Shown here piece after piece: positions 1-30,715 of a DNA stretch of 48,244 nucleotides (position 1 is the first letter of the stretch; each line of letters opens with the position of its first letter). The DNA lies in UHGV virus genome UHGV-0308199; one strand, written 5' to 3'. Source of the DNA: a virus. A program made the translations under genes and the position numbers. The notes beneath the pieces are model-generated. The model made no database searches, was not told the origin of the DNA, and worked only from the letters and a program-made list of their open reading frames with translations.

Positions 1-258
1 CAACAAACCTAATGCAGTCTTTAGTTTACAAATTGTTACATATATTATTCGTCAAATTTCATTATTATCAGAGATTAACAAGCATTGGCAAAGGTTGTCA
101 CTCAGTAATACTCACCATTATTAACTATTATTCACCATTATTTAGTATTCAAATTCTTTGAATGAGTTTGAAAGTGCCAGTCTTTACGTATTAATTCTTC
201 TGTGCAAGTATATATACACCCAATAGAGACTAATTAAGTCTTAGTATAAATATCTAAT

Positions 259-501
259 GTGAAGGACATAGCCATGAGCTTATTGCCTCGGGAAAACGCA
301 CCCCAAAAAAGATATAGACTTCTGAGAATATCAGAAGTGATTAATTTGACTGGCTTACCCAAGTCAACAATTTATCTAAAGATAAAGAATGATGAATTTC
401 CGAACCAAGTTTCTATCGGTTCTCGTTCTGTTGCATGGGTGGAGCATGAAGTTAATGAATGGATAGAGAAGAATATTCTCAATAGAAAATTAAACTCCTA
501 A
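259..501 (+). CDS. alpA: AlpA-family phage transcriptional regulator (HTH, excisionase-like)
   Basis: 80 aa; RLLRISEVINLTGLPKSTIYLKIKNDEFP...GSRSVAWVEHEVNEWI matches AlpA/Vis-type HTH pattern. Confidence 0.8.
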   Translation: MKDIAMSLLPRENAPQKRYRLLRISEVINLTGLPKSTIYLKIKNDEFPNQVSIGSRSVAWVEHEVNEWIEKNILNRKLNS

Positions 502-518
502 ATTGAGGTGGCAAATAT

Positions 519-1379
519 ATGGTTGACAATGTTTTTAAGAAGAAATTGGCATCAATTAAGAACGAACATGTGTCGGTGTTAGATAGTTACAAAGTAAGAT
601 CATTTAAAGAGACTCATAGCGACACGGCCTGTATTGTGCGTATTATTGAAATATATTCACTGAATAAGCTGCGAGCTAAAGGTGAAAAGCTGTATTCACT
701 TACGGGGTTAACAGTACCTGATACGGAAACTGTGGCGAATGAGATCAACCTGCTCCTGAGCCGTTATGCCCAGTTGTGTCGTCAGGAAGAGGAAGAGTTA
801 TCTTTCCGGCAGCGTGAAGTGACAAATGCGGAAGTTGCATGGAAAAGCACATTCTCAAAAAACGGCGTCAGTAGCATTGCTGAAGCCAAAACGAATAAAA
901 TGGGGCATGCTGAACGAGCGGATGCTGAACGGTATTACCATCTGGCTGTTTCCCGGTTGAATGAACAACATAGTCGATTGAGCACGATCAAGCTTTTGCC
1001 GGGAGTACTGGCCGATGAAGGAAACTACATTGGGAAGGGAATCGATAAGCGTTTACTGAATATATTTCCTCAATCCGGCCAGATCCCTGCTGATTTTATT
1101 TCTGTATTTAATGACAGTGACGTTGTCCGTGATATTAAATTTATTACTGATGCACTCAAGTCTTTATCTGATTCCGTGAGTGAAATTATTAGTCGTTGTA
1201 GCGTTCCAACTGATCGTTATGTATTAAATAACGGTGGAATGGCAAGAGCTATGGCTTACAGGGAGTACTATCGAGCAGATAATTATGTATTACGTTCAGT
1301 CGTAAGTGACCGGGATTATGTTGAGCATGTAATGAAATACAATCTGGTTACTGAGTACAAAAATAAAATCTTTTCTTAA
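519..1379 (+). CDS. hypothetical protein upstream of capsid-like gene
   Basis: 286 aa ORF, co-oriented, 17 nt after alpA; no motif recognised. Confidence 0.5.
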   Translation: MVDNVFKKKLASIKNEHVSVLDSYKVRSFKETHSDTACIVRIIEIYSLNKLRAKGEKLYSLTGLTVPDTETVANEINLLLSRYAQLCRQEEEELSFRQREVTNAEVAWKSTFSKNGVSSIAEAKTNKMGHAERADAERYYHLAVSRLNEQHSRLSTIKLLPGVLADEGNYIGKGIDKRLLNIFPQSGQIPADFISVFNDSDVVRDIKFITDALKSLSDSVSEIISRCSVPTDRYVLNNGGMARAMAYREYYRADNYVLRSVVSDRDYVEHVMKYNLVTEYKNKIFS

Positions 1380-1401
1380 ATACTTAAAAAGGTGAAAAAC
1401 T

Positions 1402-2406
1402 ATGTATGCCTTCAAAACTGAAAGGCCGGACGCAGCACGTCGTTATCATAATAAATTCGTCACTGGCACTAACTATCAGGAAGAATCAAACAGACGCTTT
1501 GCATTAAGCGAACCTACTGAAAATATACTGCGTACCTCAATTCTGGAATCCGGGTGGCTTATTAAAAATATTACCCTACGTGATGTTAACGCCGTGTCAG
1601 GTAATGCCGTCAATATTGGTGCCAGTGAACTGTATACCGGACGTGTGGATGGTGGCCGTTTCCACAAAAAAATGGCAATCAATGGTACGGAGTTCTTTCT
1701 GACAGAGACGGATACCTGCGCCCGGATCAGCTATTCCGATATGTCTCATATTTACCATACCGGCGTGCCGGATGAGTTTGAGAAAACGGTTGAGAGCTTT
1801 TTTGCCCAGGCATATGCGCTGGACATGCTGCGGGTCGGTTTCAACGGTGTGTCGATTGCAAATACTACAAACCCGGAAATCAATAAAAAAGGCGAGGATG
1901 TCAATATTGGCTGGCATGCACTGGCGAAAGCCTACGGGAACGGAAAGCAAATCATCTCTGAGCCTGTCACTCTGGGAGAGACTGGCACCTGGAAAAATAT
2001 TGATGCTCTGGCCAACCATCTGATTACAGAGCTTATTGCTGAGCAGTTTCGTGAAGATCCTCGTCTGGTTGTACTGGTTGGGGCAGAGCTGGCAGCACAT
2101 CAACGCCTGAAGTTATTTAATGCCGCAGACCGCCCGTCTGATGTGAATGCGGCACAGATGGCTACAAGTTCTGTTGCTGGCCGCTTTGCGTTTATTCCCC
2201 CGTTTATGCCGGGTAAGCGTCTGGCAGTAACGACGCTGGATAATCTGCATATTTACACTCAGGCGATAACACGCTGGTTTCGTGCTGAGTTTGATGATGA
2301 AAGCAGTGAATACGTGCATTCCTACCTGCGCAATGAAGGTTATGCACTCGGTGAACCTGAACTGTACGCGGCTGTTGATGAGTGCACCCTGACGTTTGCG
2401 GATTGA
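1402..2406 (+). CDS. P2-family major capsid protein (gpN)-like
   Basis: 334 aa; segments MLRVGFNGVS, DVNIGWHAL, EDPRLVVLVGAELAA, LDNLHIY fall in the same order as conserved blocks I recall from P2 gpN; from memory, not searched. Confidence 0.5.
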   Translation: MYAFKTERPDAARRYHNKFVTGTNYQEESNRRFALSEPTENILRTSILESGWLIKNITLRDVNAVSGNAVNIGASELYTGRVDGGRFHKKMAINGTEFFLTETDTCARISYSDMSHIYHTGVPDEFEKTVESFFAQAYALDMLRVGFNGVSIANTTNPEINKKGEDVNIGWHALAKAYGNGKQIISEPVTLGETGTWKNIDALANHLITELIAEQFREDPRLVVLVGAELAAHQRLKLFNAADRPSDVNAAQMATSSVAGRFAFIPPFMPGKRLAVTTLDNLHIYTQAITRWFRAEFDDESSEYVHSYLRNEGYALGEPELYAAVDECTLTFAD

Positions 2407-2419
2407 CTTAGCGACAGAA

Positions 2420-2446
2420 AGACCCGCTCAGAGGCGGGTCTCGTTT
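2420..2446 (+). terminator. hairpin after capsid-like gene (AGACCCGC-tcagag-GCGGGTCT, weak T tract)
   Basis: 8-bp stem immediately after the stop codon. Confidence 0.4.
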
Positions 2447-2544
2447 ACAGCATCAGGAAAAATGAAGAACTATTTTTAAGCAGAGGCTTAAGCATGCCAG
2501 CGTTAATTAATCCAGGCAATGATCAGTTTTCGGTTATAAATTTC

Positions 2545-2880
2545 TTGCCTCACCAGGAATGCGCGGGATATAGTTTAAAGGTTGCCGCAAAATCGGCAGC
2601 CGGGCGTAGGAACCCGTGTTATCTGAAGGCGATACTACACGCGCTAGGCGTGTTTTTTTGTGTCGCAGCTTTGACTCACCTAAAATTTATGGTGTGGTGG
2701 CTGATTGTATTTTTTTATTTTTTACGCCACATCATCAGAATTATGGTAGTCCAGGCGGGGCAGCTTTCGGGCTGGCCGGTATCCTTCAGAGCCGGTATTC
2801 CTACCCCCGTCTGGGCTACCACCCATGAGCGTAGGAACTCCGGTGGTAGCGTTACCCGCTATCTGAAGGAGGTTGCCATT
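2545..2880 (+). promoter_or_regulatory. structured leader: sigma70-like promoter (TTGCCT-18-TATAGT, 2545-2574), direct repeats GCGTAGGAAC...TATCTGAAGG (2604-2629 and 2829-2872) and an intrinsic terminator (2637-2660)
   Basis: Read directly; second repeat copy supplies GAAGGAGG RBS for the ATG at 2881; ORF-track ORF 2494..3084 is low-complexity over this stretch. Confidence 0.4.
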
Positions 2881-3084
2881 ATGGCTACAGTCCCTGCTTT
2901 ATCTCACCCTGAATTTACCTTTGTCTTTCTGGCTGTCCGCCGTACAGACCGTGATGCCCGTCCACGCCCTGTGCGTGTAATCGCAGAATGCGAGCATGCT
3001 GCACGCCTTAAACTTGCCACTGAATTTATCCTGAGCTTTGCTGCCCGTATCCCTGTGAAAAGAGCCGGGGAGGTGGTTGCATGA
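2881..3084 (+). CDS. small hypothetical protein (67 aa) downstream of the leader
   Basis: ATG at 2881 with GAAGGAGG RBS 9 nt upstream; in frame with 3' part of track ORF 2494..3084. Confidence 0.4.
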   Translation: MATVPALSHPEFTFVFLAVRRTDRDARPRPVRVIAECEHAARLKLATEFILSFAARIPVKRAGEVVA

Positions 3085-3317
3085 AATCCATGAATTTTAA
3101 GCAAGGCTGCATATTGAGTGAACAGGGGGAGAGTCGTCTGTTACGGGCGGCACTGGCCAGTGAGTTTCTTGCAGAGGTCTTGTCCGTGCCCACAGTGAAT
3201 GGAGCGAGAACTGTTTCAGCGGAAGGCGCTGCGGCTTTAGTGGCCTGTATTGCCGAACAACTGGATGGCGTTGTTAAGGAAACCAGCACAATTAAGGGAG
3301 TGATGCGCGATGAATAA
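3081..3317 (+). CDS. hypothetical protein
   Basis: 78 aa; start overlaps upstream stop (ATGA). Confidence 0.45.
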   Translation: MKSMNFKQGCILSEQGESRLLRAALASEFLAEVLSVPTVNGARTVSAEGAAALVACIAEQLDGVVKETSTIKGVMRDE

Positions 3318-3720
3318 TAATCAAAATTTAAAGGCGCATGCTTTACGAACAGCAGTCTTACGCTACTACATTGCTGATGCATTCATTTCCTTAATGGTGC
3401 GTGTTCATAATGAACCTGTTTATATTGAAGATGGCGAACGAATAGAACTCTCCCACGAAAAAGTGGTGAGTAATATTATTTACCATATTGAAATGCCGTG
3501 GGTGAATGAGTTTGGGGCTGATGCTGGTTGCATACTGGCCGCAGAGAAACTGGAAAAAATGCTTAAACCAGGCTTTATGTCAGAAAATATTCGCCTGTCA
3601 GTTTTTGGTGTCACAGAGATGCGTGAGGTTTACCGGGATATTATTTTCGGAGCACCTGATGGCGAACTACCCGAAGGTTTTGAATTTGTGAAGCCGGAAG
3701 GTCAGGAGGTGCTGCTGTGA
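3310..3720 (+). CDS. hypothetical protein
   Basis: 136 aa; stop overlaps primase GTG start. Confidence 0.5.
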   Translation: MNNNQNLKAHALRTAVLRYYIADAFISLMVRVHNEPVYIEDGERIELSHEKVVSNIIYHIEMPWVNEFGADAGCILAAEKLEKMLKPGFMSENIRLSVFGVTEMREVYRDIIFGAPDGELPEGFEFVKPEGQEVLL

Positions 3721-6404
3721 AAACACCGTCTGTATCCACGATTTCCGGAGCTGCAATTGGGCGCTGGCCTTATATCCTGTCAGCATTAGGTATTAAAGTA
3801 CCGTCCGCAGGACATCATGGGGCTTGCCCTGCCTGTGGTGGAAAAGATCGTTTTCGACTGGACGATAAAGCGGGGCGAGGGACGTGGTTTTGTAATCAGT
3901 GCGGTCATGGCGATGGTCTTGATCTGGTTCGTCTGGTGACAGGAAGAAAGATAAAAGAAGTCGCCGGGATGGTATCTGAGGCGCTTGCATTACCAGAAAT
4001 ACAGGAGAAGCCCGCATTGCCAGCCAGGAAAAAGGCCGCAGGAAAAGAAGCGGGCGCGGAGCGATATACCAGACTCAGACAGCAGTCCTGCAATGGTGAG
4101 CCGGTCTATCTGACAAATAAGAGCTTACACGGGTATTCACTTCCCTTGCTGTCACAGCCTTTGAATCTGGCCGGAATAACATTTTCCACCGGTTCATTAC
4201 TGCTGCCTTTGACGGATATTTCCGGGAATATTACTGGTGGCCAGCTTATCAATCCTGACGGGGATAAAAGTCTGCTGCCCGGTAGCCAGCTGTCTGGCGC
4301 ATTCATTGCCCTGACCGATATACCCGCTGAAACACCTGAACAGGTGATTATCACTGAGGGTTTTGCCACGGCGCTTACCGTCAGTCTGCTGACTGAAGGA
4401 TGGATCGTGGCGGCTGTCGCTGCCACCAATTTACTGAAGGTGACGGAGCAGATCCGAAAACGCTGGCCGGAAACCCGGATCATTCTGGCCGGAGATAATG
4501 ATCTGGCTGACGGCAAAGAAAACACCGGGCGTATTCAGGCAGAGAAAGCCGCCAAAGCGGTGGATGGCTGGGTAACGCTCCCTCCGGTACGCCATAAGGC
4601 TGACTGGGATGATTATCGGCAGGAAGTGGGGAAAGAACGGGCGAGAGATGCCTTTCGTGAAGAAATGACGCTGCATGGCAAAGGGCAGACCCGTTTACCA
4701 GAAGGGTTCCGGCTGACAAAAGAATATTTGTGGTACGACAAGCTGGTTAATAAGTCTGATGGTGATACAGAGATACGTAATATCAAAATTTGCAGTCCGT
4801 TGCGGGTGACGGCAATCACCAGTGATGCTGATGGAAGTAATTACGGGCGTTTGCTGGAATGGGAAGATACCAACGGAAACAGCCGTAAATGGGCAATGCC
4901 GATGGAGATGCTGGGCGGTAGCGGGGAAGAACTGCGCCGCGTTCTGCTGGTTAACGGGCTTTCTTACATCAACATTAACGGCATGGCCAGAGCATTCCTG
5001 ATGGAATATATCTCGCTGTGTAAACCGGACAGAAAAGTAACCTGTGTGAATAAAACTGGCTGGCACGGCGGGGTTTACGTTCTCCAGGATGAAGTGATAG
5101 GGCGCGAAGCCCAGTCAGTCATCTTACAAACATCGAGTGTGCAGGGGCGTGATTTTCGTGTCAGCGGCACATCAGAGGGCTGGCGTGAAAATATAGGCCG
5201 TTATTGCATAAAGAATGCCCGTCTTGCCTTTGCGGTGAGTCTGGCATTTGCTGCCCCCCTTCTGAAACTGGTTGGTATCGGCGGTGGAGGTTATCACCTC
5301 AAAGGGGAATCCACAGACGGTAAAACCACGACGATGAAAGTGGCTGCATCAGTATGTGGTGGAACAGATTTCTGGCATACGTGGCGGGCGACGGGGAATG
5401 CCTTAGAAGGAACGGCGAGCCGCCGCAATGATGCCACGCTGATGCTGGATGAAATCCGGGAGGTTGACGGCAGGGAGGCGGGAAATATCGCTTATATGCT
5501 GGCTAACGGGCAGGGCAAAGCCAGAGCCAGAACAGATGGTTCGGTAAGGGAAACCAACCGCTGGAATCTGTTGTTTCTGTCTACCGGGGAACTGTCACTG
5601 GTAGAGCATGCGGCAAGCGCCGGGGAACGTACGTATGCCGGGGTTGAGGTCAGAATGATCCAGATCCCAAGCGATTCGGGCAAGTATGGCGTGTTTGAAG
5701 AACTTCATGGCTTCAGTAGCGGGAAAACCCTGGCTGAGCATCTTGAGCAGCACGTAGCGCATTATCATGGTGCACCATTCCGCGACTGGCTGTATTGCCT
5801 GACCGCTGATCTGCCGGAACTGACCAGTCAGGCGAAAGCCTTATTGAAAGAGTATACCCGAAGGCTGACGCCGGAAAATGCCGGGAATCAGGTTGGCCGG
5901 GCTGTTACCCGTTTTGCTCTGGTTGCGATGGCCGGGGAGCTGGCCACAAAAGCGGGCATCACAGGATGGCCGGAGGGAGAGGCCTTTCGTGCCGCTCAAA
6001 GCTGTCTGGCTGCATGGATGGCTGACCGGGGCCATACAGCTAATCAGGAAGATAAAGCGGCACTTGAACAGGTTCGGGACTTCATGACGCGTAATCAGTT
6101 CAGTCGGTTTGCTGACTGGAATGACGACAGGAACCGGCCTGTTTCAATGATGGGATTCAGAAAAGTCGATAAAGGAGACAACGTGACAGAGCCGGTTGTG
6201 ACGTTCTACGTTCTCCCGTCAGGCTGGAAGGAGATCTGTAAGGGATTTGACTCGCGTAAGGTGGCCAGGTTGTGTGTGGACGCGGGCTGGCTGAAACCCG
6301 GTGAAGATGGCCGGACGCAAAACAGCATTCGCCTGCCAGAAATAGGGCTTAAACGTGTGTACCAGTTCAATACACAGGTACTGGGAAGCGCTGAACCTGA
6401 GTGA
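3717..6404 (+). CDS. P4 alpha-type primase-helicase (zinc-binding, TOPRIM, P-loop NTPase)
   Basis: 895 aa; CPACGG...CNQCGH zinc motif, ITEG and AGDND TOPRIM motifs, Walker A GESTDGKTT; GTG start. Confidence 0.9.
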   Translation: MKTPSVSTISGAAIGRWPYILSALGIKVPSAGHHGACPACGGKDRFRLDDKAGRGTWFCNQCGHGDGLDLVRLVTGRKIKEVAGMVSEALALPEIQEKPALPARKKAAGKEAGAERYTRLRQQSCNGEPVYLTNKSLHGYSLPLLSQPLNLAGITFSTGSLLLPLTDISGNITGGQLINPDGDKSLLPGSQLSGAFIALTDIPAETPEQVIITEGFATALTVSLLTEGWIVAAVAATNLLKVTEQIRKRWPETRIILAGDNDLADGKENTGRIQAEKAAKAVDGWVTLPPVRHKADWDDYRQEVGKERARDAFREEMTLHGKGQTRLPEGFRLTKEYLWYDKLVNKSDGDTEIRNIKICSPLRVTAITSDADGSNYGRLLEWEDTNGNSRKWAMPMEMLGGSGEELRRVLLVNGLSYININGMARAFLMEYISLCKPDRKVTCVNKTGWHGGVYVLQDEVIGREAQSVILQTSSVQGRDFRVSGTSEGWRENIGRYCIKNARLAFAVSLAFAAPLLKLVGIGGGGYHLKGESTDGKTTTMKVAASVCGGTDFWHTWRATGNALEGTASRRNDATLMLDEIREVDGREAGNIAYMLANGQGKARARTDGSVRETNRWNLLFLSTGELSLVEHAASAGERTYAGVEVRMIQIPSDSGKYGVFEELHGFSSGKTLAEHLEQHVAHYHGAPFRDWLYCLTADLPELTSQAKALLKEYTRRLTPENAGNQVGRAVTRFALVAMAGELATKAGITGWPEGEAFRAAQSCLAAWMADRGHTANQEDKAALEQVRDFMTRNQFSRFADWNDDRNRPVSMMGFRKVDKGDNVTEPVVTFYVLPSGWKEICKGFDSRKVARLCVDAGWLKPGEDGRTQNSIRLPEIGLKRVYQFNTQVLGSAEPE

Positions 6405-6419
6405 TTATCGCGTGAGTCT

Positions 6420-6625
6420 TATTTTTATGAGGTAACACTGGTAACAGAGGTAACACCCGTTACTGATGCGGTTCTTCAGTGTTACCAGTCAAAAATACTG
6501 ACTGGTAACAGAGGTAACAAAAAATGGTGTGTTACCACGCGTTACCTCTTGATTTTGCTAACTGGTAACAGATTAAATCCTTTTAAATCAATAGCGTTAC
6601 ACGTGTTACCAGTGTTACACGTTCA
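6420..6625. repeat. iteron array, candidate replication origin
   Basis: At least 10 copies of GGTAACA / TGTTACC in both orientations within ~200 bp just after the primase gene. Confidence 0.7.
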
Positions 6626-6686
6626 GAACAAGAGGTAGGGATCCAAATCCCTTCTTCTGGCGGGCAACAGTATAGGGCACAGAACG

Positions 6687-6959
6687 ATGAAGATGATGAG
6701 AATGTACTGCCCCACATGTCAGGCAGTAGCACGGATAGGTAAAACAAACAGGAAACACCCACAACTGTACGATGTGTACTGCTATTGCTCTAATGTGGAG
6801 TGCGGTCACTCGTTTGTGATGAATGTTGCTTTCTCCCATTCCGTTAGTCCAAGCGCGCTGAACGGGCAGGGAAGGGTTAAAGAGCTGATTGATGCAATTC
6901 CACCCGAGGAACGGGAAAAGGCTTTAAAGTTGCTGCTGGCTGCGCAAAAGAATGGGTAA
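6687..6959 (+). CDS. ogr: Ogr/Delta-family zinc-finger late-gene activator
   Basis: 90 aa; CPTCQ...CYCSNVECGHSF C2-C2 zinc finger typical of P2 Ogr / P4 Delta. Confidence 0.8.
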   Translation: MKMMRMYCPTCQAVARIGKTNRKHPQLYDVYCYCSNVECGHSFVMNVAFSHSVSPSALNGQGRVKELIDAIPPEEREKALKLLLAAQKNG

Positions 6960-7638
6960 AGTATGCGTCGGGAATGGCCGATCTGTTCCCGGAACCTGAA
7001 CACAGGATTTCAGTTTATACGGTCATAAAATTATTATTTTTCAACTGGTTATCTTCTTCATGTTTCACAAACCTTCATAAAATCACACACCTAAAATTAA
7101 TTATCCATTTAATATCATAGAGTTGCGTATTCAGGCCATAGATTCGACGGACAGTAAAACTGAAAAAAAATGAATTTCTTTTCATTCTTTTCAGTTCCTG
7201 TATCGCAGTACATCTCGAGGACTGGCACGGACTGGCGGTATCGTTTGTAAAAAATCCAGGCTGAAAATTTTTAGTGATATGAAAACCGCAGGCGGGTGCG
7301 GTGTAGTGCCGTTTTGGTCTGTCGAGCGTATATTTTCCTTTTTCACGATTGCTGCATATCAAAACGAATGTGCAGATATCAGGCCGTGTCAAACCGTGAA
7401 TCGTGGAGCCTAAATGCCCAAACTACGTTTGTAGACCTAGCTAGGGGAAGGTTTCCACATATACTGCTACCTATCTTCCAGTCGCTGGTGAGGATCAAGG
7501 TAAGCTAACTGGTGAACAAGAAAAGTACTTTCGTATCTTGCGTACTCGTTTTTTTTGATTAGTATGTACAGGTAGTAACTGGATGGTGAGAATTCGTCAT
7601 AACTTATCAAATTGCATGATGTTTATAGAGTATGAGTA

Positions 7639-8520
7639 ATGAGTCATAATAAAAAGGAATATGCTAAATTTTTCCGTCGCCCCATTTTTTCATCCTTAGC
7701 AAAAGGTAAGGATATTTCGGATTTATTTGGGAGTTTTGATTCTTACTGCTATGAAACACTGTTTTCAAACAATGATAATAATGAACATGAGATTTCACTA
7801 AGGGATTTATTTACATCATTATATGATTTTTTGCGTCTGAATTATAGAAATGAATATGTTTATAAGACAGCACTTGTCAATAAAATAATATTCGGTAAGC
7901 ACAGCCCAAAAACAAGTTCGTCGTCCATAGAGTTACCAATTAAAAACTCTATAGTGGATGTTGCGGTGTTTAATGGTACGTCTACAGCTTACGAGATTAA
8001 GACAGAGTATGATTCACCAAAAAGGTTGATTACTCAAGCCCCTGATTATTTGGATGTTTTTGATAAAGTGTATATAGTTACACATCCAGAGTATGCAAGT
8101 AAATATTGTGCTTTAAATCTCCCCAGAGTGGGAGTTATGGTTTTGAATAAAAAAGATCAATTGAGTGTCATTAAGGAGGCAGATTCAAATATTGATTATA
8201 TTAAAAGTGACAGCTTGTTTTCAGTTCTTAGAAAGGAAGAGTTCTTAGCTATAATAGAAGATTACACTTCAACTAAAATAAATATGCCTAACGGATTGGT
8301 TTATGAATATTGTAAAGAGATATTCATGCAGATGCCATTAAACATAGCAAATAAATACTTTATCTCTGCTATGAAAAAAAGATGTAACGATAAAGTTTTT
8401 TTGGATTATATTTATTCTCTTCCAGCATGTTTACGTGTTTTAGGTTATGCAACACCATTATCAAGAAAGCAAAAAGAATTCATCATGAATTTGATGGATG
8501 TAAAAATTAAAATTTGTTGA
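7639..8520 (+). CDS. cargo protein A, predicted PD-(D/E)xK-fold nuclease-like (candidate defense component)
   Basis: 293 aa; ~30-33% GC by eye; IVDVAVFNGTSTAYEIKTE gives D-x12-E-x-K signature. Confidence 0.7.
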   Translation: MSHNKKEYAKFFRRPIFSSLAKGKDISDLFGSFDSYCYETLFSNNDNNEHEISLRDLFTSLYDFLRLNYRNEYVYKTALVNKIIFGKHSPKTSSSSIELPIKNSIVDVAVFNGTSTAYEIKTEYDSPKRLITQAPDYLDVFDKVYIVTHPEYASKYCALNLPRVGVMVLNKKDQLSVIKEADSNIDYIKSDSLFSVLRKEEFLAIIEDYTSTKINMPNGLVYEYCKEIFMQMPLNIANKYFISAMKKRCNDKVFLDYIYSLPACLRVLGYATPLSRKQKEFIMNLMDVKIKIC

Positions 8521-8541
8521 TATCCTCAGGAGTTGTAAGTT

Positions 8542-9492
8542 ATGTATAGCCCATATTTGTATGCGAGAAGTACAGAGTTATTATGCCTTAGGGACCTCGT
8601 TGCGAAGGGAGTTAGCCTAAATGGTCTGCTACCAATTTTAGAACCAATTAACGTCAATACGAGAAATTTATTAACATGTTTAAATGTTTGGAATTCTGAC
8701 ATAATTGTTATCCTTAATCCTTATCAGGAAGATTTTTCTTCACACAATAACGTCTTAACTTTAAATCAAAATTTATCAAGTGTATTAACAAATAAAAATA
8801 ATATCATCTCTGGATATCTTATTCAGCCCAATACAACGATTAATGATATTAATAATTGGTTGAATGCTAACTTAAATAGACGAGTTGCACTTCTATATGA
8901 TAATCCATCATTATCCAACTCTGATATTCAGTTGTTGGCGACAAATCAATTGATTAGTTATCATGTTGTTTTAAATAATAAAATGCTTCCTAATCAGTGC
9001 GCTCTTCTTCCTTTGTCGAAGTTAATTATTATTAGCGATAACTTTAGAAAGTTAGCAAAAAATGCTGATTATAATGGGCCGGAACTTTTCACGCACGCAC
9101 ATCAATTCGTGGGACAAAATTACTTAGGATTTGGCGATTATACAATTACTGGCCAGGTACTAGATCTTGGAGGTGGTCAACCTTCTGCTGTTGCCGCACA
9201 TTTGGTGTTCAAGAATTTACAAGCGAATACAGTTTGGATTCGTCATTTTGTATCAAGCAACACGCAACGAGGAAGTTCAAATGTTACTGCAAAATTTTTA
9301 GATGTTTCAGATCAAATTACAAATCTTGTTCCCCAACATCCAACCCAGTTTGGCAGCAACATTGGTCTTAACTATTATTATTACAATAGTCAACCAACTG
9401 TAAGGCATTTCCCTGGGTTGCCAAAAAACAAACAGTATCAAATTACTCACCATATTTGTTTCATGCTGGATTTAATAGCAGGTCGTATTTAA
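8542..9492 (+). CDS. cargo protein B, unknown function (candidate defense component)
   Basis: 316 aa, N/L/Q-rich, ~28% GC; AGGAG RBS; 21-nt gap from gene A; 3' end overlaps convergent int by 21 nt; no Walker A/B seen. Confidence 0.7.
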   Translation: MYSPYLYARSTELLCLRDLVAKGVSLNGLLPILEPINVNTRNLLTCLNVWNSDIIVILNPYQEDFSSHNNVLTLNQNLSSVLTNKNNIISGYLIQPNTTINDINNWLNANLNRRVALLYDNPSLSNSDIQLLATNQLISYHVVLNNKMLPNQCALLPLSKLIIISDNFRKLAKNADYNGPELFTHAHQFVGQNYLGFGDYTITGQVLDLGGGQPSAVAAHLVFKNLQANTVWIRHFVSSNTQRGSSNVTAKFLDVSDQITNLVPQHPTQFGSNIGLNYYYYNSQPTVRHFPGLPKNKQYQITHHICFMLDLIAGRI

Positions 9493-10647
9493 TAAGCTAG
9501 CGTACCATTCCATCATTACTTGTCGATCTTTAATATATTGCGCATGATTGTAAGTACCTCGAATAGAGTTCTTATCAACATGCGCAAGCTGCATTTCAAT
9601 CCAGGCACTTTCAAACCCATGCTCATGCAAGATGGTGCTCATGGTATGCCTGAAACCGTGACCCGTTAACCGACCGTGATAACCCAGTAGTTTTATCACT
9701 TTGTTGATGCTGGCTTCGCTCATTGGTTTACTGACGTCATTCCGGCCAGGGAAAACGAGGCTGTAATTCCCTGTTATTTCTTGCAGCTTTTTCAGGATAT
9801 TGATCGCCTGAGTTGATAACGGAACCAGATGGGGGCGGCGTTTCTTCATCCGTTCTTTGGGGATCTCCCATAAGGCATTATCTAAATCAAACTCAGCCCA
9901 TTCCGCTGCACGTAGTTCAATTGTTCGCACGCCTGTTAGCATCAACAGCTGCGTGGCGTATTTGGTAACTAAACTGCCCTGATAGTTATCCAGAGCATTA
10001 ACGAACTCGGGCAACTCGCTTTCAGTCAGGAACGGGAAGTGTTGGGTTTTAGGTTTGTTGAGTGCGATAGCTAAATCGGGTGCAAAATTATACTTTGCTC
10101 TACCAGTGGCAACAGCATAACGAAGCACTTCACCACAGCGGCGGCGGATCTTACTGGTTTGCTCTAGCGCACCTCTTTTCTCTATTTTTTGCAGGACGGT
10201 TAGCAGTTCTAATGGTTCAATCTGCTCAATTGGGCGCTGGCCGATAAAAGGAAAAATATCCTTTTCCATACAATTGAGAACCTCTTTTGCATAACCCTCT
10301 GACCAGGTGGCTTTTTTCGATGAGTGCCATTCTCTGGCCACAGACTCAAAGCTGTTCTCATGCGCGAACTGCAAAGCAATCTTATCTGCTTTTCTGGCTT
10401 CACTTGGGTTTATCCCGTTGGCTAACATCGAACGCGCTTCATCACGTTTGGTACGTGCCTGTGCCAACGACACATCGCCATATACGCCAAAGGAAATCAT
10501 CTTAGGCTTACCTGCAAAGCGATAGCGAAAACGCCAGCCTTTACTGCCCGCTGTGTCGATCAGGAGTGATAGCCCCATACCATCGTTAAGCGTATAGGGT
10601 TTGTCCTTCGGTTTTGCTCTTTTTATTTGGATGTCAGATAGCAGCAT
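9472..10647 (-). CDS. int: tyrosine integrase, P4/CP4-57 family
   Basis: N-terminus LSDIQIKRAKPKDKPYTLNDGMGLSLLI...WRFRYRF (arm-binding type); C-terminus HGFRHT...LAH...GTYNHAQY catalytic motifs; start taken at internal Met (10647). Confidence 0.9.
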   Translation of the reverse strand: MLLSDIQIKRAKPKDKPYTLNDGMGLSLLIDTAGSKGWRFRYRFAGKPKMISFGVYGDVSLAQARTKRDEARSMLANGINPSEARKADKIALQFAHENSFESVAREWHSSKKATWSEGYAKEVLNCMEKDIFPFIGQRPIEQIEPLELLTVLQKIEKRGALEQTSKIRRRCGEVLRYAVATGRAKYNFAPDLAIALNKPKTQHFPFLTESELPEFVNALDNYQGSLVTKYATQLLMLTGVRTIELRAAEWAEFDLDNALWEIPKERMKKRRPHLVPLSTQAINILKKLQEITGNYSLVFPGRNDVSKPMSEASINKVIKLLGYHGRLTGHGFRHTMSTILHEHGFESAWIEMQLAHVDKNSIRGTYNHAQYIKDRQVMMEWYASLLNTTCY

Positions 10648-10895
10648 GTGTATAGAAAAAAGATCGAACTCAGTTATACACAATGTTATACGCAAAGATG
10701 TATAGATTCCATTAGAAATAATGGTACTTTGCTGGACGAGTATAAGGAGATGATATCAGTTAAAACAGTGAGTTATGGAATTAATTGAACTTAGTGAGAA
10801 GTGTTCATGGTGTCCCCTGCAGACATCTACTTGAAGCGGCAGGGGATTGATTGGAATGGTGTTTTTTAGATGTGAGAAATATTTTACCCGCTATT

Positions 10896-22697: not shown

Positions 22698-22930
22698 GCA
22701 AAATTAAATCTGGTTATCCAGGGAATGGGGAATACCCGAAGCCATATTTACCTGTAACTGTGACCACTCAATCTAGGCATCCACATCATTTCAAGCAAAG
22801 TGGTACAGCTTATTGGAGTGGCAATCGGTGGATAGGTATTGATGGGTTCAAAATTGGGTATGCAAAGGTAATTAAATGGGAATTTAACATCGCAAACTGG
22901 AGTTCATCCCATGAGGAAACTAACGTTTGA
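22694..22930 (+). CDS. hypothetical protein
   Basis: 78 aa ORF. Confidence 0.4.
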   Translation: MSKIKSGYPGNGEYPKPYLPVTVTTQSRHPHHFKQSGTAYWSGNRWIGIDGFKIGYAKVIKWEFNIANWSSSHEETNV

Positions 22931-26455: not shown

Positions 26456-27104
26456 TGGCAGCAAATACCGAAATATTTGGGTAGTTGGCGACCTGCACGG
26501 ATGCTACACGAACCTGATGAACAAACTGGATACGATTGGATTCGACAACAAAAAAGACCTGCTTATCTCGGTGGGCGATTTGGTTGATCGTGGTGCAGAG
26601 AACGTTGAATGCCTGGAATTAATCACATTCCCCTGGTTCAGAGCTGTACGTGGAAACCATGAGCACATGATGATTGATGGCTTATCAGAGCGTGGAAACG
26701 TCAATCACTGGCTGTTTAATGGCGGTGGCTGGTTCTTTAATCTCGATTACGACAAAGAAATTCTGGCTAAAGCTCTTGCCCATAAAGCAGATGAACTTCC
26801 GTTAATCATCGAGCTGGTGAGCAAAGATAAAAAATATGTCATTTGCCACGCCGATTATCCTTGTAACGAATACGAGTTTGGAAAGTCAGTTGATCATCAG
26901 CAGGTAATCTGGAACCGCGAACGAATCAGCAACTCACAAGACGGGATCGTGAAAGAAATCAAAGGAGCGGACACGTTCATCTTTGGTCATACGCCAGCAG
27001 TGAAACCACTCAAGTTTGCCAACCAGATGTATATCGATACCGGCGCAGTGTTCTGCGGAAACCTCACATTGATTCAGGTACAGGGAGAAGGCGCGTGGGC
27101 ATAA
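26433..27104 (+). CDS. Ser/Thr protein phosphatase (NinI, lambda PPase type)
   Basis: GDLHG, GDLVDRG, GNHE metallophosphatase motifs. Confidence 0.85.
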
Positions 27105-27613
27105 GAGAACTAAACCTCACCAAAGAGCAGCACGAGTGGCTGAATGGCTGGCTTGAACTGTGGGGCGCATGGGTTTATTCAGGTCGTCTGGAAAAGCGCA
27201 TGAGCAGCGTAATAGCGAAGTTCATGGAGAGCGTAGAGCCGGGAAGAGTTATGACAAGGCCAATGTGCAATGATGATGATGGAATGTTGATTTCTCAGGT
27301 CGTCGATTCCGTCATGTACATTGACAAGAAAGCCTTTGGCATCCTCCTCAGCTACTACGCTCATGGTTCATCTAAGCGAGCAATTGCATCCTACTATCAC
27401 GCGACTGCAAAGCCACGCAAGATGTGTGGACGTGGTGGCGAGGGATGGAGAAAACCTTCACTGGCAACCTGTAGAAACGAAATTGACGACATCCTGAAAG
27501 CGTCATTATTTGTTTTATACCAGCCAATGCAAAATGCTTTCAAAATGCGTAAACGTGTTGAGAAAGTTAAGCATGTTGCTGTTAAAAGTCTTGACATGCA
27601 ATTAGCCATTTAG
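27095..27613 (+). CDS. Q: late-gene antiterminator Q (phage 82 / QuuD type)
   Basis: WLELWGAW...[12 protein letters not shown] pattern and position before lysis genes. Confidence 0.65.
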
Positions 27614-27660
27614 CCATAATATTCACATATGCTGCTGCTTTTGCATTCAGCAACCATCAC

Positions 27661-27686
27661 AAGCCCACCTCCTGTGGGCTTTTTTG
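27661..27686 (+). terminator. intrinsic terminator downstream of Q (candidate tR')
   Basis: AAGCCCAC-ctcct-GTGGGCTT + TTTTT. Confidence 0.65.
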
Positions 27687-27807
27687 CATTCGCGTGCAAT
27701 CAAAACAAGAGTCTTAGTGATATGGGCCTGAGATATGGTGGTGGAAACATCGCTCCGCTCTTGGCTGTCATATCTACGCGAACAGGCTCTATCCCTAAGG
27801 TAAAGCG

Positions 27808-28320
27808 ATGAAAGAAATAAAATTAACGCCAGAAATGGTGCTTTCTGTTGTTGATTACAATCCATCATCAGGCGACTTTCACTGGAGATGGAGGCAGGGG
27901 AGAGAGAGGACCACTTTGACATGGAACTCTCGTTTTGCTTTCAAGAAATGCTCATCAATAAATTCTGATGGGTATTTAATGATTATGATTAATGGTAAAG
28001 CATACCCTGCTCACAGACTGGCATGGTTGATTGTTTATGGCACCATGCCCGATGGTTTTATTGATCACATCAACAGGGTAAGAACAGATAACCGGATATC
28101 AAATCTTCGTCTTGTCACTCATTCCGAAAATATGCAAAACAGGAAAATTCAGAAGAATAATAAATCTGGATACCGTGGCGTGTCTTGGGATGCTAAGTAC
28201 GGGAAATGGAGAGCAAGAATTAATGCGTCTGGAAAGTGTATTAACCTTGGATACCATGACACTGCCGAACTTGCCGCTGCGGCTTTTGAGGCAGCCAGAA
28301 TGAAATATCATACCGTTTAA
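27808..28320 (+). CDS. HNH homing endonuclease (HNH + AP2-like), second copy
   Basis: 170 aa; AHRLAWLIVYGTMPDGFIDHINRVRTDNRISNLRL...GYRGVSWDAKYGKWRARI; paralogous to 22911..23498. Confidence 0.8.
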   Translation: MKEIKLTPEMVLSVVDYNPSSGDFHWRWRQGRERTTLTWNSRFAFKKCSSINSDGYLMIMINGKAYPAHRLAWLIVYGTMPDGFIDHINRVRTDNRISNLRLVTHSENMQNRKIQKNNKSGYRGVSWDAKYGKWRARINASGKCINLGYHDTAELAAAAFEAARMKYHTV

Positions 28321-28330
28321 AGATGTAAGC

Positions 28331-28370
28331 TGCCGTTAGTGACTCTTAAGTTGCAACGGTGGCTTTTTTT
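28331..28370 (+). terminator. possible terminator (imperfect hairpin + T8)
   Basis: CCGTT...AACGG stem with long loop, then TTTTTTTT. Confidence 0.35.
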
Positions 28371-28375
28371 TATTT

Positions 28376-28450
28376 GGGTCAGTCGTATAAAGGTCATTAC
28401 GGAAGGCTGTTAACCTTCTTATCGTGGTTCGAGTCCACGCTGTCCCGCCA
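28376..28450 (+). tRNA. tRNA, anticodon GUU (Asn) by manual fold
   Basis: Cloverleaf: acceptor 6/7 bp, anticodon stem GAAGG/CCTTC, loop CTGTTAA, T-arm CGTGG-TTCGAGT-CCACG, encoded CCA. Confidence 0.55.
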
Positions 28451-28455
28451 AATAT

Positions 28456-28531
28456 GCTGGTTTAGCTCCAATGGTAGAGCAGTCGCCTTGTAAGCGAATG
28501 GGTAGCGGTTCAAGTCCGTTAACCAGCACCA
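28456..28531 (+). tRNA. tRNA, anticodon UGU (Thr) by manual fold
   Basis: Acceptor GCTGGTT/AACCAGC 7/7, D-arm GCTC-CAATGGTA-GAGC, anticodon loop CTTGTAA, T-arm AGCGG-TTCAAGT-CCGTT, encoded CCA. Confidence 0.65.
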
Positions 28532-28773: not shown

Positions 28774-29097
28774 ATGAAGATGCCAGAAAAACATGACCTG
28801 TTAGCCGCCATTCTCGCGGCAAAGGAACAAGGCATCGGGGCAATCCTTGCGTTTGCAATGGCGTACCTTCGCGGCAGATATAATGGCGGTGCGTTTACAA
28901 AAACAGTAATCGACGCAACGATGTGCGCCATTATCGCCTGGTTCATTCGTGACCTTCTCGACTTCGCTGGACTAAGTAGCAATCTCGCTTATATAACGAG
29001 CGTGTTCATCGGCTACATCGGTACTGACTCGATTGGTTCGCTTATCAAACGCTTCGCTGCTAAAAAAGCCGGAGTAGAAGATGGTGGAAATCAATAA
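28774..29097 (+). CDS. S: holin S (lambda type, dual-start MKM)
   Basis: Sequence matches recalled lambda S ([41 protein letters not shown]...). Confidence 0.9.
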
Positions 29098-29557
29098 TCA
29101 ACGTAAGGCGTTCCTCGATATGCTGGCGTGGTCAGAGGGAACTGATAACGGACGGCAGAAAACCAGAAATCATGGTTATGACGTCATTGTTGGCGGAGAG
29201 CTATTTACTGATTACTCCGATCACCCTCGCAAACTTGTCACGCTAAACCCCAAACTCAAATCAACAGCAGCCGGACGTTACCAGCTTCTTTCCCGTTGGT
29301 GGGATGCCTATCGTAAGCAGCTTGGCCTGAAAGACTTCTCTCCGAAAAGCCAGGACGCTGTGGCATTGCAGCAGATTAAAGAGCGTGGCGCTTTACCGAT
29401 GATTGATCGCGGTGATATTCGTCAGGCAATTGACCGTTGCAGCAATATCTGGGCTTCACTGCCGGGCGCTGGTTATGGTCAGTTCGAGCATAAGGCTGAC
29501 AGCCTGATTGCAAAATTCAAAGAAGCAGGCGGAACGGTCAGAGAGATTGAGGTATGA
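29081..29557 (+). CDS. R: endolysin R (lytic transglycosylase, lambda type)
   Basis: [39 protein letters not shown]... matches recalled lambda R. Confidence 0.9.
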
Positions 29558-29991
29558 GCAGAGTAACCGCGATTATCTCCGCTCTGGTTATCTGCATCAT
29601 CGTCTGCCTGTCATGGGCTGTTAATCATTACCGTGATAACGCCATCGCCTACAAAGAACAGCGCGATAAAGCCACGTACATCATCGCTGATATGCAGAAG
29701 CGTCAACGTGATGTAGCAGAACTCGACGCCAGATACACAAAGGAGCTTGCTGATGCTAACGCGACTATCGAAAGTCTCCGTGCTGATGTTTCTGCTGGTC
29801 GTAAGCGCCTGCAAGTCGCCGCCACCTGTGCAAAGTCAACGACCGGAGCCAGCAGCATGGGCGATGGAGAAAGCCCAAGACTTACAGCAGATGCTGAACT
29901 CAATTATTACCGTCTCCGAAGTGGAATCGACAAGATAACCGCGCAGGTTAACTACCTGCAGGAGTACATCAGGACGCAATGCCTGAAATAA
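29554..29991 (+). CDS. Rz: i-spanin Rz
   Basis: N-terminal TM segment, coiled-coil; position after R. Confidence 0.8.
29747..29938 (+). CDS. Rz1: o-spanin Rz1 (lipoprotein embedded in Rz, +1 frame)
   Basis: Signal peptide with lipobox LVVSAC, proline-rich mature part; entirely within Rz. Confidence 0.7.
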
Positions 29992-30193
29992 TTTTTTTTG
30001 CAAATCACAAAGTCCATTTAATGAGCCTCGCGATGCGGGGCTTTTTGCAATAAATGCGTACCGCAACGCATGTTTTTTACACCGAACCTGACCCTTTGGA
30101 ATGGGCCTTTGAGGATACCAGTTAGTGCTGGCGAGCCTCGGTGGGCTGGTTTCCTGTGCGGCAAAGGTTCATTTCAAATGGTAGGTAAACGTT

Positions 30194-30715
30194 ATGAATA
30201 TCGTGCCACTTAACTACAAAGGTGAAATTGTCAGTTTCAACACTGATGGTTGGATCAACGTCACAGGTGTTGCTGAGAGATTTGGGAAACGCATTGATAA
30301 CTGGATGCGTTTGGCAGAAACGCTTGAATACGTTCGTGCTTTAGACGAAGCGTTGACCGGGAAAGAATCTCAAATTTTACATCCCTCACAATCGAGGTAT
30401 GTAAAAACCAGCAAGGCACGAAAGGACAGGGGTGGTGGTACGTGGCTACATCCAAAACTTTCAGTTGCATTTGCCCGTTGGTGTGATGCTCGTTTTGCTG
30501 TGTGGTGCGACCTGCACATTGATAGTCTGCTTCGCGGTGAACTGACTGAGCAGCAGAAATATGAGCAAGCATGTCGCATTCGCGATGACCGGAAATCAAA
30601 AGCCAGCAATGGGGCAAGAGAGATGGCTCGCTGGCGATGGGATAAGCCGGTTATTGAAGCAAATGTCGAGTACTGGCGCGAGCAACTGCAGTTGACTCTC
30701 GATATCGCGTGCTGA
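30194..30715 (+). CDS. KilA-N domain protein
   Basis: 173 aa; N-terminal KilA-N-like pattern (tentative), located after lysis cassette. Confidence 0.5.
   Translation: MNIVPLNYKGEIVSFNTDGWINVTGVAERFGKRIDNWMRLAETLEYVRALDEALTGKESQILHPSQSRYVKTSKARKDRGGGTWLHPKLSVAFARWCDARFAVWCDLHIDSLLRGELTEQQKYEQACRIRDDRKSKASNGAREMARWRWDKPVIEANVEYWREQLQLTLDIAC

Follow-up and report, generated by a model that had tools for sequence, protein, structure and literature searches.

We analyzed the late control region of a prophage in UHGV virus genome UHGV-0308199 (48,244 nucleotides; this whole stretch is referred to as the window), in which a gene for a free-standing endonuclease with HNH and AP2 domains is located between the antiterminator gene Q and the lysis genes. 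Comparison with related phages and prophages revealed that the gene is carried by an insert of ~698 nucleotides (nt), which is an optional indel at one defined site, between the -10 hexamer of the late promoter pR′ and the resident late leader. We consider it probable, judging from sequence comparisons, that the insert is an intact and selectively maintained cassette of the homing-endonuclease type, which would be expressed late through Q readthrough and damped at translation, and whose product would cut the insert-free junction, with the cassette then being copied in by repair.

An optional insert at the late promoter

The insert was mapped in an alignment of the window with Sf6, Bas106, SPN9CC and HK629, and extends from 27621 to ~28323. 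In Sf6, Bas106 and SPN9CC, the -10 hexamer CATAAT runs into TAGAAGG-TAAGCTGCCGTT, where the phage-21-type leader with its tR′ hairpin leads on to the tRNA genes, with no insert. In the window, the hexamer is followed by a different leader with its own terminator (leader A with terminator tA), by a further leader of ~120 nt and by the HNH open reading frame (ORF), after which the resident leader and its terminator (leader B) are found. The insert brings its own pause-like element and terminator, which had gone unremarked in the preliminary description of this DNA. The right junction, at which CATACCGTTTAAAGATG abuts TAAGCTGCCGTT, was constant in every complete copy of the HNH allele group among the loci examined.

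Insert-free alleles are common. They were found in Sf6, HF4s, Bas106 and SPN9CC and in at least 301 complete Escherichia coli genomes, in which pR′ is joined directly to leader B. A 703-nt insert was present in 39 of 5426 complete E. coli genomes (99.3-100% identity) and in HK629 (at least 99.3% identity), the only record of the phage collection with the whole insert; the first 255 nt are retained in PhiR12 phages of this collection. A query covering the leader-A junction (27585-27700) was matched by 41 complete E. coli genomes at 80% coverage or more. We attribute these matches to the 39 carriers of the HNH gene, to NCTC9112, which has a truncated copy, and to the gene-less WCHEC115106. Leader A was found almost exclusively together with the HNH gene. 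It was first proposed from this DNA alone that the gene had been inserted into the leader of the late operon, after Q and before the lysis genes. This is borne out by the indel mapped between the pR′ -10 hexamer and leader B, and universal presence of the gene in related Q-S regions is clearly excluded.

The product was also correctly described as a free-standing HNH/AP2 protein of 170 residues, as confirmed by an intact ORF (27808..28320) and by both Pfam domains. HNH_3 was detected in residues 66-110 over the full model (positions 1-46; E 2e-18, 66.1 bits versus a cut-off of 24.8), and AP2, with a marginal score, in residues 120-167 (E 1.6e-8, 35.1 bits versus a cut-off of 33.3). Independently, the AP2 part matched the plant AP2 protein WRI1 (PDB 7WQ5, E 2e-6). 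The catalytic Asp-His and conserved Asn residues are present (DH...DNR..NLR...EN), and the HNH boxes agree with those described for HNN-AP2 proteins (PMC2248197). The protein is 100% identical to HK629 gp62 (YP_007111836.1), which is annotated as an HNH endonuclease. The nearest relatives in the phage database beyond HK629 were Xanthomonas, Shigella and Felixounavirus endonucleases (42-45% identity), and 3783 phage records matched the HNH-AP2 protein. As a kind of element, the gene is ordinary and has been annotated before, and it belongs to a huge phage endonuclease family. Its G+C content is 0.39-0.41, compared to 0.47-0.51 in the flanks. Alleles of the gene differed by 20 synonymous and 10 nonsynonymous changes, with nonsynonymous sites being about three times as numerous as synonymous sites, and 10 of the 12 distinct alleles were intact; the ORF is under purifying selection.

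Nucleotide diversity was computed over 27 distinct carrier haplotypes of the phage-21 Q type (Q21). It was 0.046 in the Q gene and 0.034 in the promoter, fell to 0.0065 in leader A, 0.000 in the RNA leader, 0.0057 in the HNH ORF and 0.005 in the leader-B hairpin, and exceeded 0.058 after the T-run. By this measure, the cassette covers ~745 bp (27621 to about 28365), including the leader-B hairpin, and has a diversity ~5-8 times below that of the Q gene next to it, with a sharp drop at both borders; this low diversity implies that the cassette is much younger than its surroundings. The flanks of carriers differ both upstream (NinI or NinH; Q21-type or O157/Stx2-type Q) and downstream (tRNAs or several lambda-like sequences), and lysis genes also vary (lambda-family or other holins; GH24 or GH104 endolysins). 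In three IMG/VR contigs, the cassette was located behind a Q and promoter of the O157 Stx2 prophage type. The cassette has recently spread across diverged phage backgrounds.

We also detected several degraded copies. A frameshifted copy (locus L069) has a 1-nt deletion at codon 4 of the HNH gene, whereas PhiR12 phages (locus L005; PhiR12_1 2001-2255) and NCTC9112 have a cassette truncated after HNH codon 23. In WCHEC115106 (locus L006, 2000-2075), leader A and tA are joined directly to a lambda-like sequence at the T-run, an allele consistent with loss between two T-runs. These products are those expected of the life cycle of a homing endonuclease, and distribution, diversity, selection and decay, taken together, fit such a life cycle without proving homing.

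Upstream of the insert, the Q protein matched the Q21 structures PDB 6JNX/6P18 over residues 1-162 (phmmer E 1.6e-92). Because of homology to phage 21 and Sf6, pR′ was placed upstream of tA, inside the end of Q. This promoter scored 11/12 in the promoter scan, is near-consensus, extends over the 3′ end of Q and is identical in sequence to the annotated pR′ of Sf6, whose record calls it "nearly identical to phage 21 late promoter". Between its hexamers, a direct repeat was found (two copies of TTAGCCAT at 27602-27617). It has been reported that the Q21 binding element (QBE) consists of two directly repeated 8-bp subsites, and that positions -40 to -1 of pR′21 together with a natively placed pause element suffice for Q21 loading in vitro (bioRxiv 10.1101/651190). 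We read the two TTAGCCAT copies as the QBE, an assignment of our own that is consistent with the published description. Leader A starts with ATTCACA-TATGCT, and its -10-like TATGCT (27628-27633) lies 7 nt past the pR′ -10 hexamer, which is the spacing of TAAGCT in insert-free alleles such as Sf6, suggesting that TATGCT acts as a pause element. Leader B starts 5 nt past the HNH stop codon and consists of the -10-like TAAGCT (28326-28331), a tR′ hairpin of the phage-21/Sf6 type (28327-28365; -21.6 kcal/mol, z -4.0) and a T8 run (28364-28371).

The gene had been thought to be flanked by a terminator after Q and by a T8 tract. The terminator hairpin is real, but it is preceded by pR′, which had not been noticed (nor had the two tRNA genes immediately downstream of the T8 run), and the T8 run is not a loose T-tract but the tail of the tR′ hairpin; the two belong to two tandem late leaders. 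The lysis genes lie beyond both terminators. No sigma-70-like promoter was found by the promoter scan on the + strand of 27621-27807. A "pR′" is annotated in HK629 just upstream of the HNH ORF, but the scan found no sigma-70-like site there. The HK629 record puts a terminator before this "putative late promoter pR′" (HK629 locus 1080-1195, corresponding to 27663-27778 of the window).

Immediately 5′ of the pause element lies a recurrent module border. Leader B, from exactly TAAGCTGCC onward, was also observed behind a different Q and promoter (with a TGAGCAAA-type repeat) in hundreds of genomes, and such an arrangement is present upstream of tRNAs and stx2 in an O157:H7 Stx2 prophage. The tRNA-Asn/tRNA-Thr pair of the window is part of the late leader, ahead of the holin gene, and the same pair is annotated in Sf6, Bas106 and SPN9CC; its placement between tR′ and the holin gene is that of Sf6, phage 21-type and P22-like phages. 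On a larger scale, the region from ~10.8 to ~46.2 kb is a P22-like E. coli prophage of the Sf6/CUS-3 kind. Positions 1-10800 of the window gave no match in the phage collection and are probably host chromosome flanking the prophage, and the attachment site should therefore be near 10.8 kb. Coordinates of all features are listed in Table 1.

Table 1. Features of the late control region and related loci. Positions refer to the window unless a locus is named.
Feature	Position	Strand	Basis or remarks
Q antiterminator gene, phage-21 type (Q21)	27095..27613	+	Pfam Phage_antitermQ (E 1e-25); phmmer match
Late promoter pR′	27591..27620	+	-35 TTGACA 27591-27596; -10 CATAAT 27615-27620; 18-nt spacer
Leader A, 5′ end of the insert, alternative initial transcribed region	27621..27685	+	Alignments; terminator scan
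Intrinsic terminator tA	Hairpin 27661-27681, T-run 27680-27685	+	Terminator scan
Structured 5′ leader RNA of the HNH gene, ~125 nt	27683..27810	+	Covariance model; covariation; fold
HNH_3 (HNN-type) + AP2 free-standing endonuclease gene	27808..28320	+	170 residues; ATG..TAA ORF; Pfam domains
Leader B, resident late leader	28326..28371	+	Alignments; Sf6 qut/tR′ annotation; fold
tRNA-Asn(GTT)	28376-28450	+	ARAGORN; the two tRNAs score 55 and 61 bits in Rfam
tRNA-Thr(TGT)	28456-28531	+	ARAGORN; Rfam tRNA
S holin, R endolysin, Rz	28774-29097, 29081-29557, 29554-29991	+	ORF list; Pfam Phage_holin_3_1; homologous-region annotations
Second HNH_3 + AP2 gene, 195 residues	22911..23498	+	Variable nin region, directly before ninB
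Leader B behind other Q type	Loci L009, L010, L011 (E. coli O157:H7 and others), around 1460-1575		
Further copies of the structured leader	L008 2452-2589; L007 3418-3551; L004 3699-3834; L012-L121		

A structured leader before the endonuclease gene

Between tA and the HNH gene, the transcript is predicted to form a small hairpin (27685-27698) followed by a long irregular hairpin. In the basal helix of the latter, TCTTAG (27712-27717) pairs with CTAAGG (27795-27800), which covers the Shine-Dalgarno sequence AAGG, 7 nt before the ATG of the HNH gene. By inspection, this pairing was identified in three versions: the window has CUUAG/CUAAG, copies of the Klebsiella type have CUUUC/GAAAG, and those of a third type have CUUUA/UAAAG. 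Folded as a single sequence, 27627-27830, a segment that takes in leader A and tA as well, had a z score of -2.6.

This leader, which the preliminary description had also passed over, is not confined to the HNH gene. A 60-nt stretch of the 5′ untranslated region matched Klebsiella phage Kp4856-1, where it lies upstream of an unrelated gene, and a 17-mer from this stretch was present in 94 IMG/VR contigs. Nearly all 17-mer sites were located behind a terminator and immediately before a ribosome-binding site, and the genes that followed coded for HNH proteins of the window type, diverged HNH-AP2 proteins or KilA-N-type proteins. Pfam searches of the genes downstream of the leader detected KilA-N and KilA-N+P63C, and weaker members of the leader family, in Hafnia phage yong1 and Salmonella phage SPN9CC, precede Phage_pRha genes. 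Copies were also found in Serratia, Pantoea, Pectobacterium, Symbiopectobacterium and Leminorella genomes. Members of the family (~125-138 nt) were found in about 100 phage contigs, and at least 10 Enterobacterales genera have prophages with a copy.

A covariance model was built solely from Klebsiella-type leader copies. It recovered the window copy with 75.3 bits (E 6e-18) and gave no other match in the window, and leader copies of different genera scored 129-175 bits. In the model-fitted alignment, which leans towards structure by construction, 98.1% of cells were paired and compensatory changes were present in 24 of 38 pairs, compared to 4-10 compensatory pairs in slid controls and 9.3±1.8 in shuffles. 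In a MAFFT alignment of the inner helices, 98.7% of cells were paired and 5 of 26 pairs were compensatory, compared to 0-1 in slid controls; 83 of 500 shuffles reached 5 compensatory pairs. Support here is weaker than on the model-fitted alignment but still present. The MAFFT covariation score (0.208 versus 0.137) was equalled by none of the 500 shuffles. G-U pairs are numerous, and they exist on the sense strand only; model scores on the reverse strand were about ten-fold lower (15-17 bits versus 130-175 bits in the sense direction). Both observations favor an RNA over a DNA palindrome, and a reading of the leader as a palindromic operator was disfavored on these grounds.

A search of Rfam 15 with three leader variants returned the tRNAs and chance-level matches far below threshold, but no family, and text searches with leader sequence strings and for RNA motifs of KilA-N or Rha genes gave no description of the leader. 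Hammerhead-like and kink-turn-like readings of the CUGAGA/CGAA junction were rejected by eye, as core positions do not fit. The internal loops CUGAGA, UCUYGG and ACGCGAA are near-invariant, which may suggest recognition by a specific factor or ligand. Within the leader, 27753-27760 (CGCTCTTG) includes CGCUCUU, which has 7 of the 8 bases of the lambda nut boxA (CGCUCUUA); this may be chance. The boxA-like loop relaxes to YCUCUYGG in other members of the leader family.

An arrangement of the same order was observed after Rz, at 30053-30196, before a KilA-N gene (30194-30715): a terminator is followed by a small hairpin and by a long hairpin that ends at the ribosome-binding site. Its fold is stable (minimum free energy z -3.4), and the leader model matched it weakly over the full length (14 bits; E 0.001 in 401 nt, filters off). 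This region may be a distant second copy of the leader.

Our confidence is evenly divided as to whether the leader represents an undescribed family of cis-regulatory RNAs in the late operons of Enterobacterales temperate phages, which would follow a terminator, lock the ribosome-binding site and gate potentially toxic DNA-binding accessory genes (HNH-AP2, KilA-N, KilA-N+P63C and Rha). It would act as a translational brake or gate for such potentially harmful genes. As a guess, the gate might be opened by a bound factor or through processing of the long helix by RNase III. The shared leader may also serve as a recombination handle for the swapping of cargo genes.

Origin and mobility of the cassette

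The window contains a second HNH_3+AP2 gene, in the nin region, and the preliminary description considered the two genes as paralogs resulting from ongoing spread within the genome. Their relation is evident. The HRLAWL, DHIN, DNRI.NLRL, GY.GVSWD and KWRA blocks are all present, the domain architecture is common to both (the AP2 domain of the second protein, at 29.4 bits, is below the Pfam cut-off), and the proteins are 41% identical over 165 residues (BLASTP E 4e-42). However, the protein encoded at 27808 is closer to its orthologues at the Q-S position in other phage lineages (54-60% identity), which follow the same promoter type, leader A, terminator and RNA leader. These orthologues have other terminators at the far end. 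The protein encoded at 22911 is 37-47% identical to the 27808 protein and all its Q-S orthologues and lacks an 8-residue segment that is common to them. The 27808 protein is about as close to Xanthomonas phage endonucleases (42-45%) as to the 22911 protein (41-44%). In addition, the flanks of the two genes are unrelated, and the covariance model, run over the whole window, detected no leader copy before the 22911 gene. Identities and the 8-residue segment place the two genes in separate old lineages, which indicates independent acquisitions from a very large family rather than recent duplication. Intragenomic duplication is ruled out by the identity comparisons, and we regard ongoing spread within the genome as very improbable. 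In the phage records searched, lambda, Sf6 and others match the flanks of the second gene in two pieces, without the gene, and no phage-collection record covers 80% or more of a 1.8-kb query around it.

For the cassette at pR′, homing would proceed as follows. Since no sigma-70 promoter was found between pR′ and the HNH ORF, the gene would be transcribed only from pR′. Without Q, transcripts would end at tA as an RNA of ~60 nt. Q21 would load at the intact QBE with TATGCT as the substituted pause element, and the loaded polymerase would pass tA, the HNH gene, tR′ and the tRNAs to reach the lysis and morphogenesis genes. Such Q-dependent readthrough would make the nuclease a late protein. With the Shine-Dalgarno sequence held in the leader's basal helix, translation of the nuclease would also be damped or gated. 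DNA would be bound by the AP2 domain and the N-terminal region, and the His-Me finger would nick or cut the insert-free allele of a co-resident related phage, the target being the junction of the pR′ -10 hexamer and leader B that the insert splits. Repair through homology in Q/pR′ on the left and in the leader-B hairpin on the right would then copy the cassette into this allele.

Several points weigh against this course of events. Pause, readthrough and translational gating are steps that we infer, and a literature search gave no cleavage site, target or biased inheritance for this nuclease. The AP2 score barely exceeds the Pfam cut-off. Carriers are modest in number, roughly 39 of about 340 Q21-type late regions. 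Leader B is intact downstream of the HNH gene, although the -10/leader-B junction is split, and the target must therefore span the split junction, as a carrier would otherwise cut itself. Orthologues at the same locus are just 54-60% identical, implying long residence, which also fits a domesticated accessory gene. Moreover, the usual exchange of modules among lambdoid phages, at conserved promoter and terminator sequences and combined with selection, could give the same picture.

This last point leads to a rather unlikely but plausible explanation, in which the cassette is a passive, moron-like accessory element. It would be moved about by general recombination, or by recombination at short homologies, in the conserved pR′, leader and terminator sequences, without homing; the nuclease could serve to exclude competing phages, to degrade DNA late in infection, or have no role. 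The junctions are indeed conserved sequences that recur as module borders, with leader B following several types of Q and promoter and T-runs forming the variable right border, and orthologues have long resided at the locus. As the structured leader also precedes KilA-N and Rha genes, exchange of cargo needs no nuclease. In lambdoid phages, a moron is an extra gene flanked by its own promoter and its own terminator. A terminator follows the HNH gene, but no sigma-70-like promoter was found here or in the leaders of other family members, and this classical feature of morons is therefore missing. Low diversity confined to the cassette amid diverse flanks needs a driver, although a useful function could supply one, and proteins of this family are widely regarded as homing endonucleases (PMC2248197, PMC10448857).

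It appears very improbable that the cassette is what is left of a mobile element, decaying or inactive and now without function. Frameshifted and truncated copies and the low frequency of carriers would agree with it, but most distinct alleles are intact, synonymous differences outnumber nonsynonymous ones, and the catalytic motif and both domains are complete. An involvement in packaging, like that of HK97 gp74, which assists terminase, is hardly credible. HNH proteins can be components of phage packaging machines, as reportedly found by Kala et al. in 2014, and such a role is also discussed in PMC10448857. However, the gene is located between Q and the holin gene and not next to terminase, its domain family is different (HNH_3+AP2), the prophage is P22-like, and most close relatives package DNA without the gene. 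We retain homing by an intact cassette as the favored explanation.

Relation to known systems and implications

The same gene in the same position is present in HK629 (gp62) and in E. coli prophages such as that of E2348/69, where RefSeq names the product "HNH endonuclease signature motif containing protein". HK629 differs in having a lambda-type sequence after the T-run and no tRNAs there. The protein was also compared with I-HmuI, a nicking HNH homing endonuclease of the SPO1 intron (PDB 1U3E). It aligned to residues 51-113 with marginal similarity (E 0.2), with IDHINRVRTDNRISNLRLVTHSENMQN of the 170-residue protein opposite VDHKDGNKDNNLSTNLRWVTQKINVEN of I-HmuI, and shares the D-H...N...N His-Me finger after a beta-rich DNA-binding region. 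I-HmuI differs in being intron-encoded, and its C-terminal DNA-binding part is helical (helix-turn-helix) and not AP2.

The free-standing HNN-AP2 endonucleases of Xanthomonas oryzae phages Xp10, Xop411 and OP1 have the same architecture, with 42-45% identity over the full length. The HRLAWL, D/H, DNR, NLR and EN boxes are common to both, and neither has Cys dyads. Genomes of these phages contain multiple diverged HNN-AP2 copies, with gain and decay (PMC2248197). They differ in being lytic, in infecting another host and in having these genes outside a Q-dependent leader; a structured leader is unreported there. In ICP1 and other phages, the IPA-HNH genes for homing endonucleases code for an N-terminal HNH and a C-terminal AP2 domain and lie at borders of recombined segments (PMC10448857). 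The HNH-AP2 order is shared, and the borders of our cassette likewise coincide with breaks in diversity. IPA-HNH domains are too divergent for the HNH_3 profile, whereas the HNH domain described here matches it strongly, and the IPA-HNH sites adjoin polymerase, ribonucleotide reductase or terminase genes, whereas the present locus is a regulatory leader.

With regard to regulation, Q21, pR′, two 8-bp QBE subsites, pause spacing and the tR′ hairpin are all shared with the late cassette of phage 21 and Sf6. The difference lies in a duplication of the leader into divergent forms A and B, with the gene between two terminators. For T4 I-TevI and Aeh1 mobE, control by sequestration of the ribosome-binding site has reportedly been found, by Gott in 1988 and by Gibb and Edgell in 2007 and 2010. 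Those genes would resemble the HNH locus in the upstream terminator, in expression that is late only (as deduced here) and in the hairpin that hides the ribosome-binding site. Unlike in I-TevI and mobE, the leader here belongs to a conserved family of ~125 nt that also occurs before non-nuclease genes and across genera.

As this very protein has been annotated before, both in HK629 and in RefSeq prophages, the gene by itself adds little. A clean natural experiment is provided by the precisely mapped pair of insert-free and insert-bearing alleles in Sf6 and HK629, two well-studied phages, and in strain E2348/69. In addition, the insert lies within the best-understood antitermination cassette, that of Q21, where the pause element is replaced and a second terminator is added while late expression is presumably kept. 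With this allele pair and this location, both homing and its cost for the timing of lysis are directly testable. The structured leader is a more interesting lead than the gene and a candidate new regulatory RNA. Its occurrence before genes for HNH, KilA-N and Rha proteins could account for the tolerance of phages to toxic accessory genes in their late operons.

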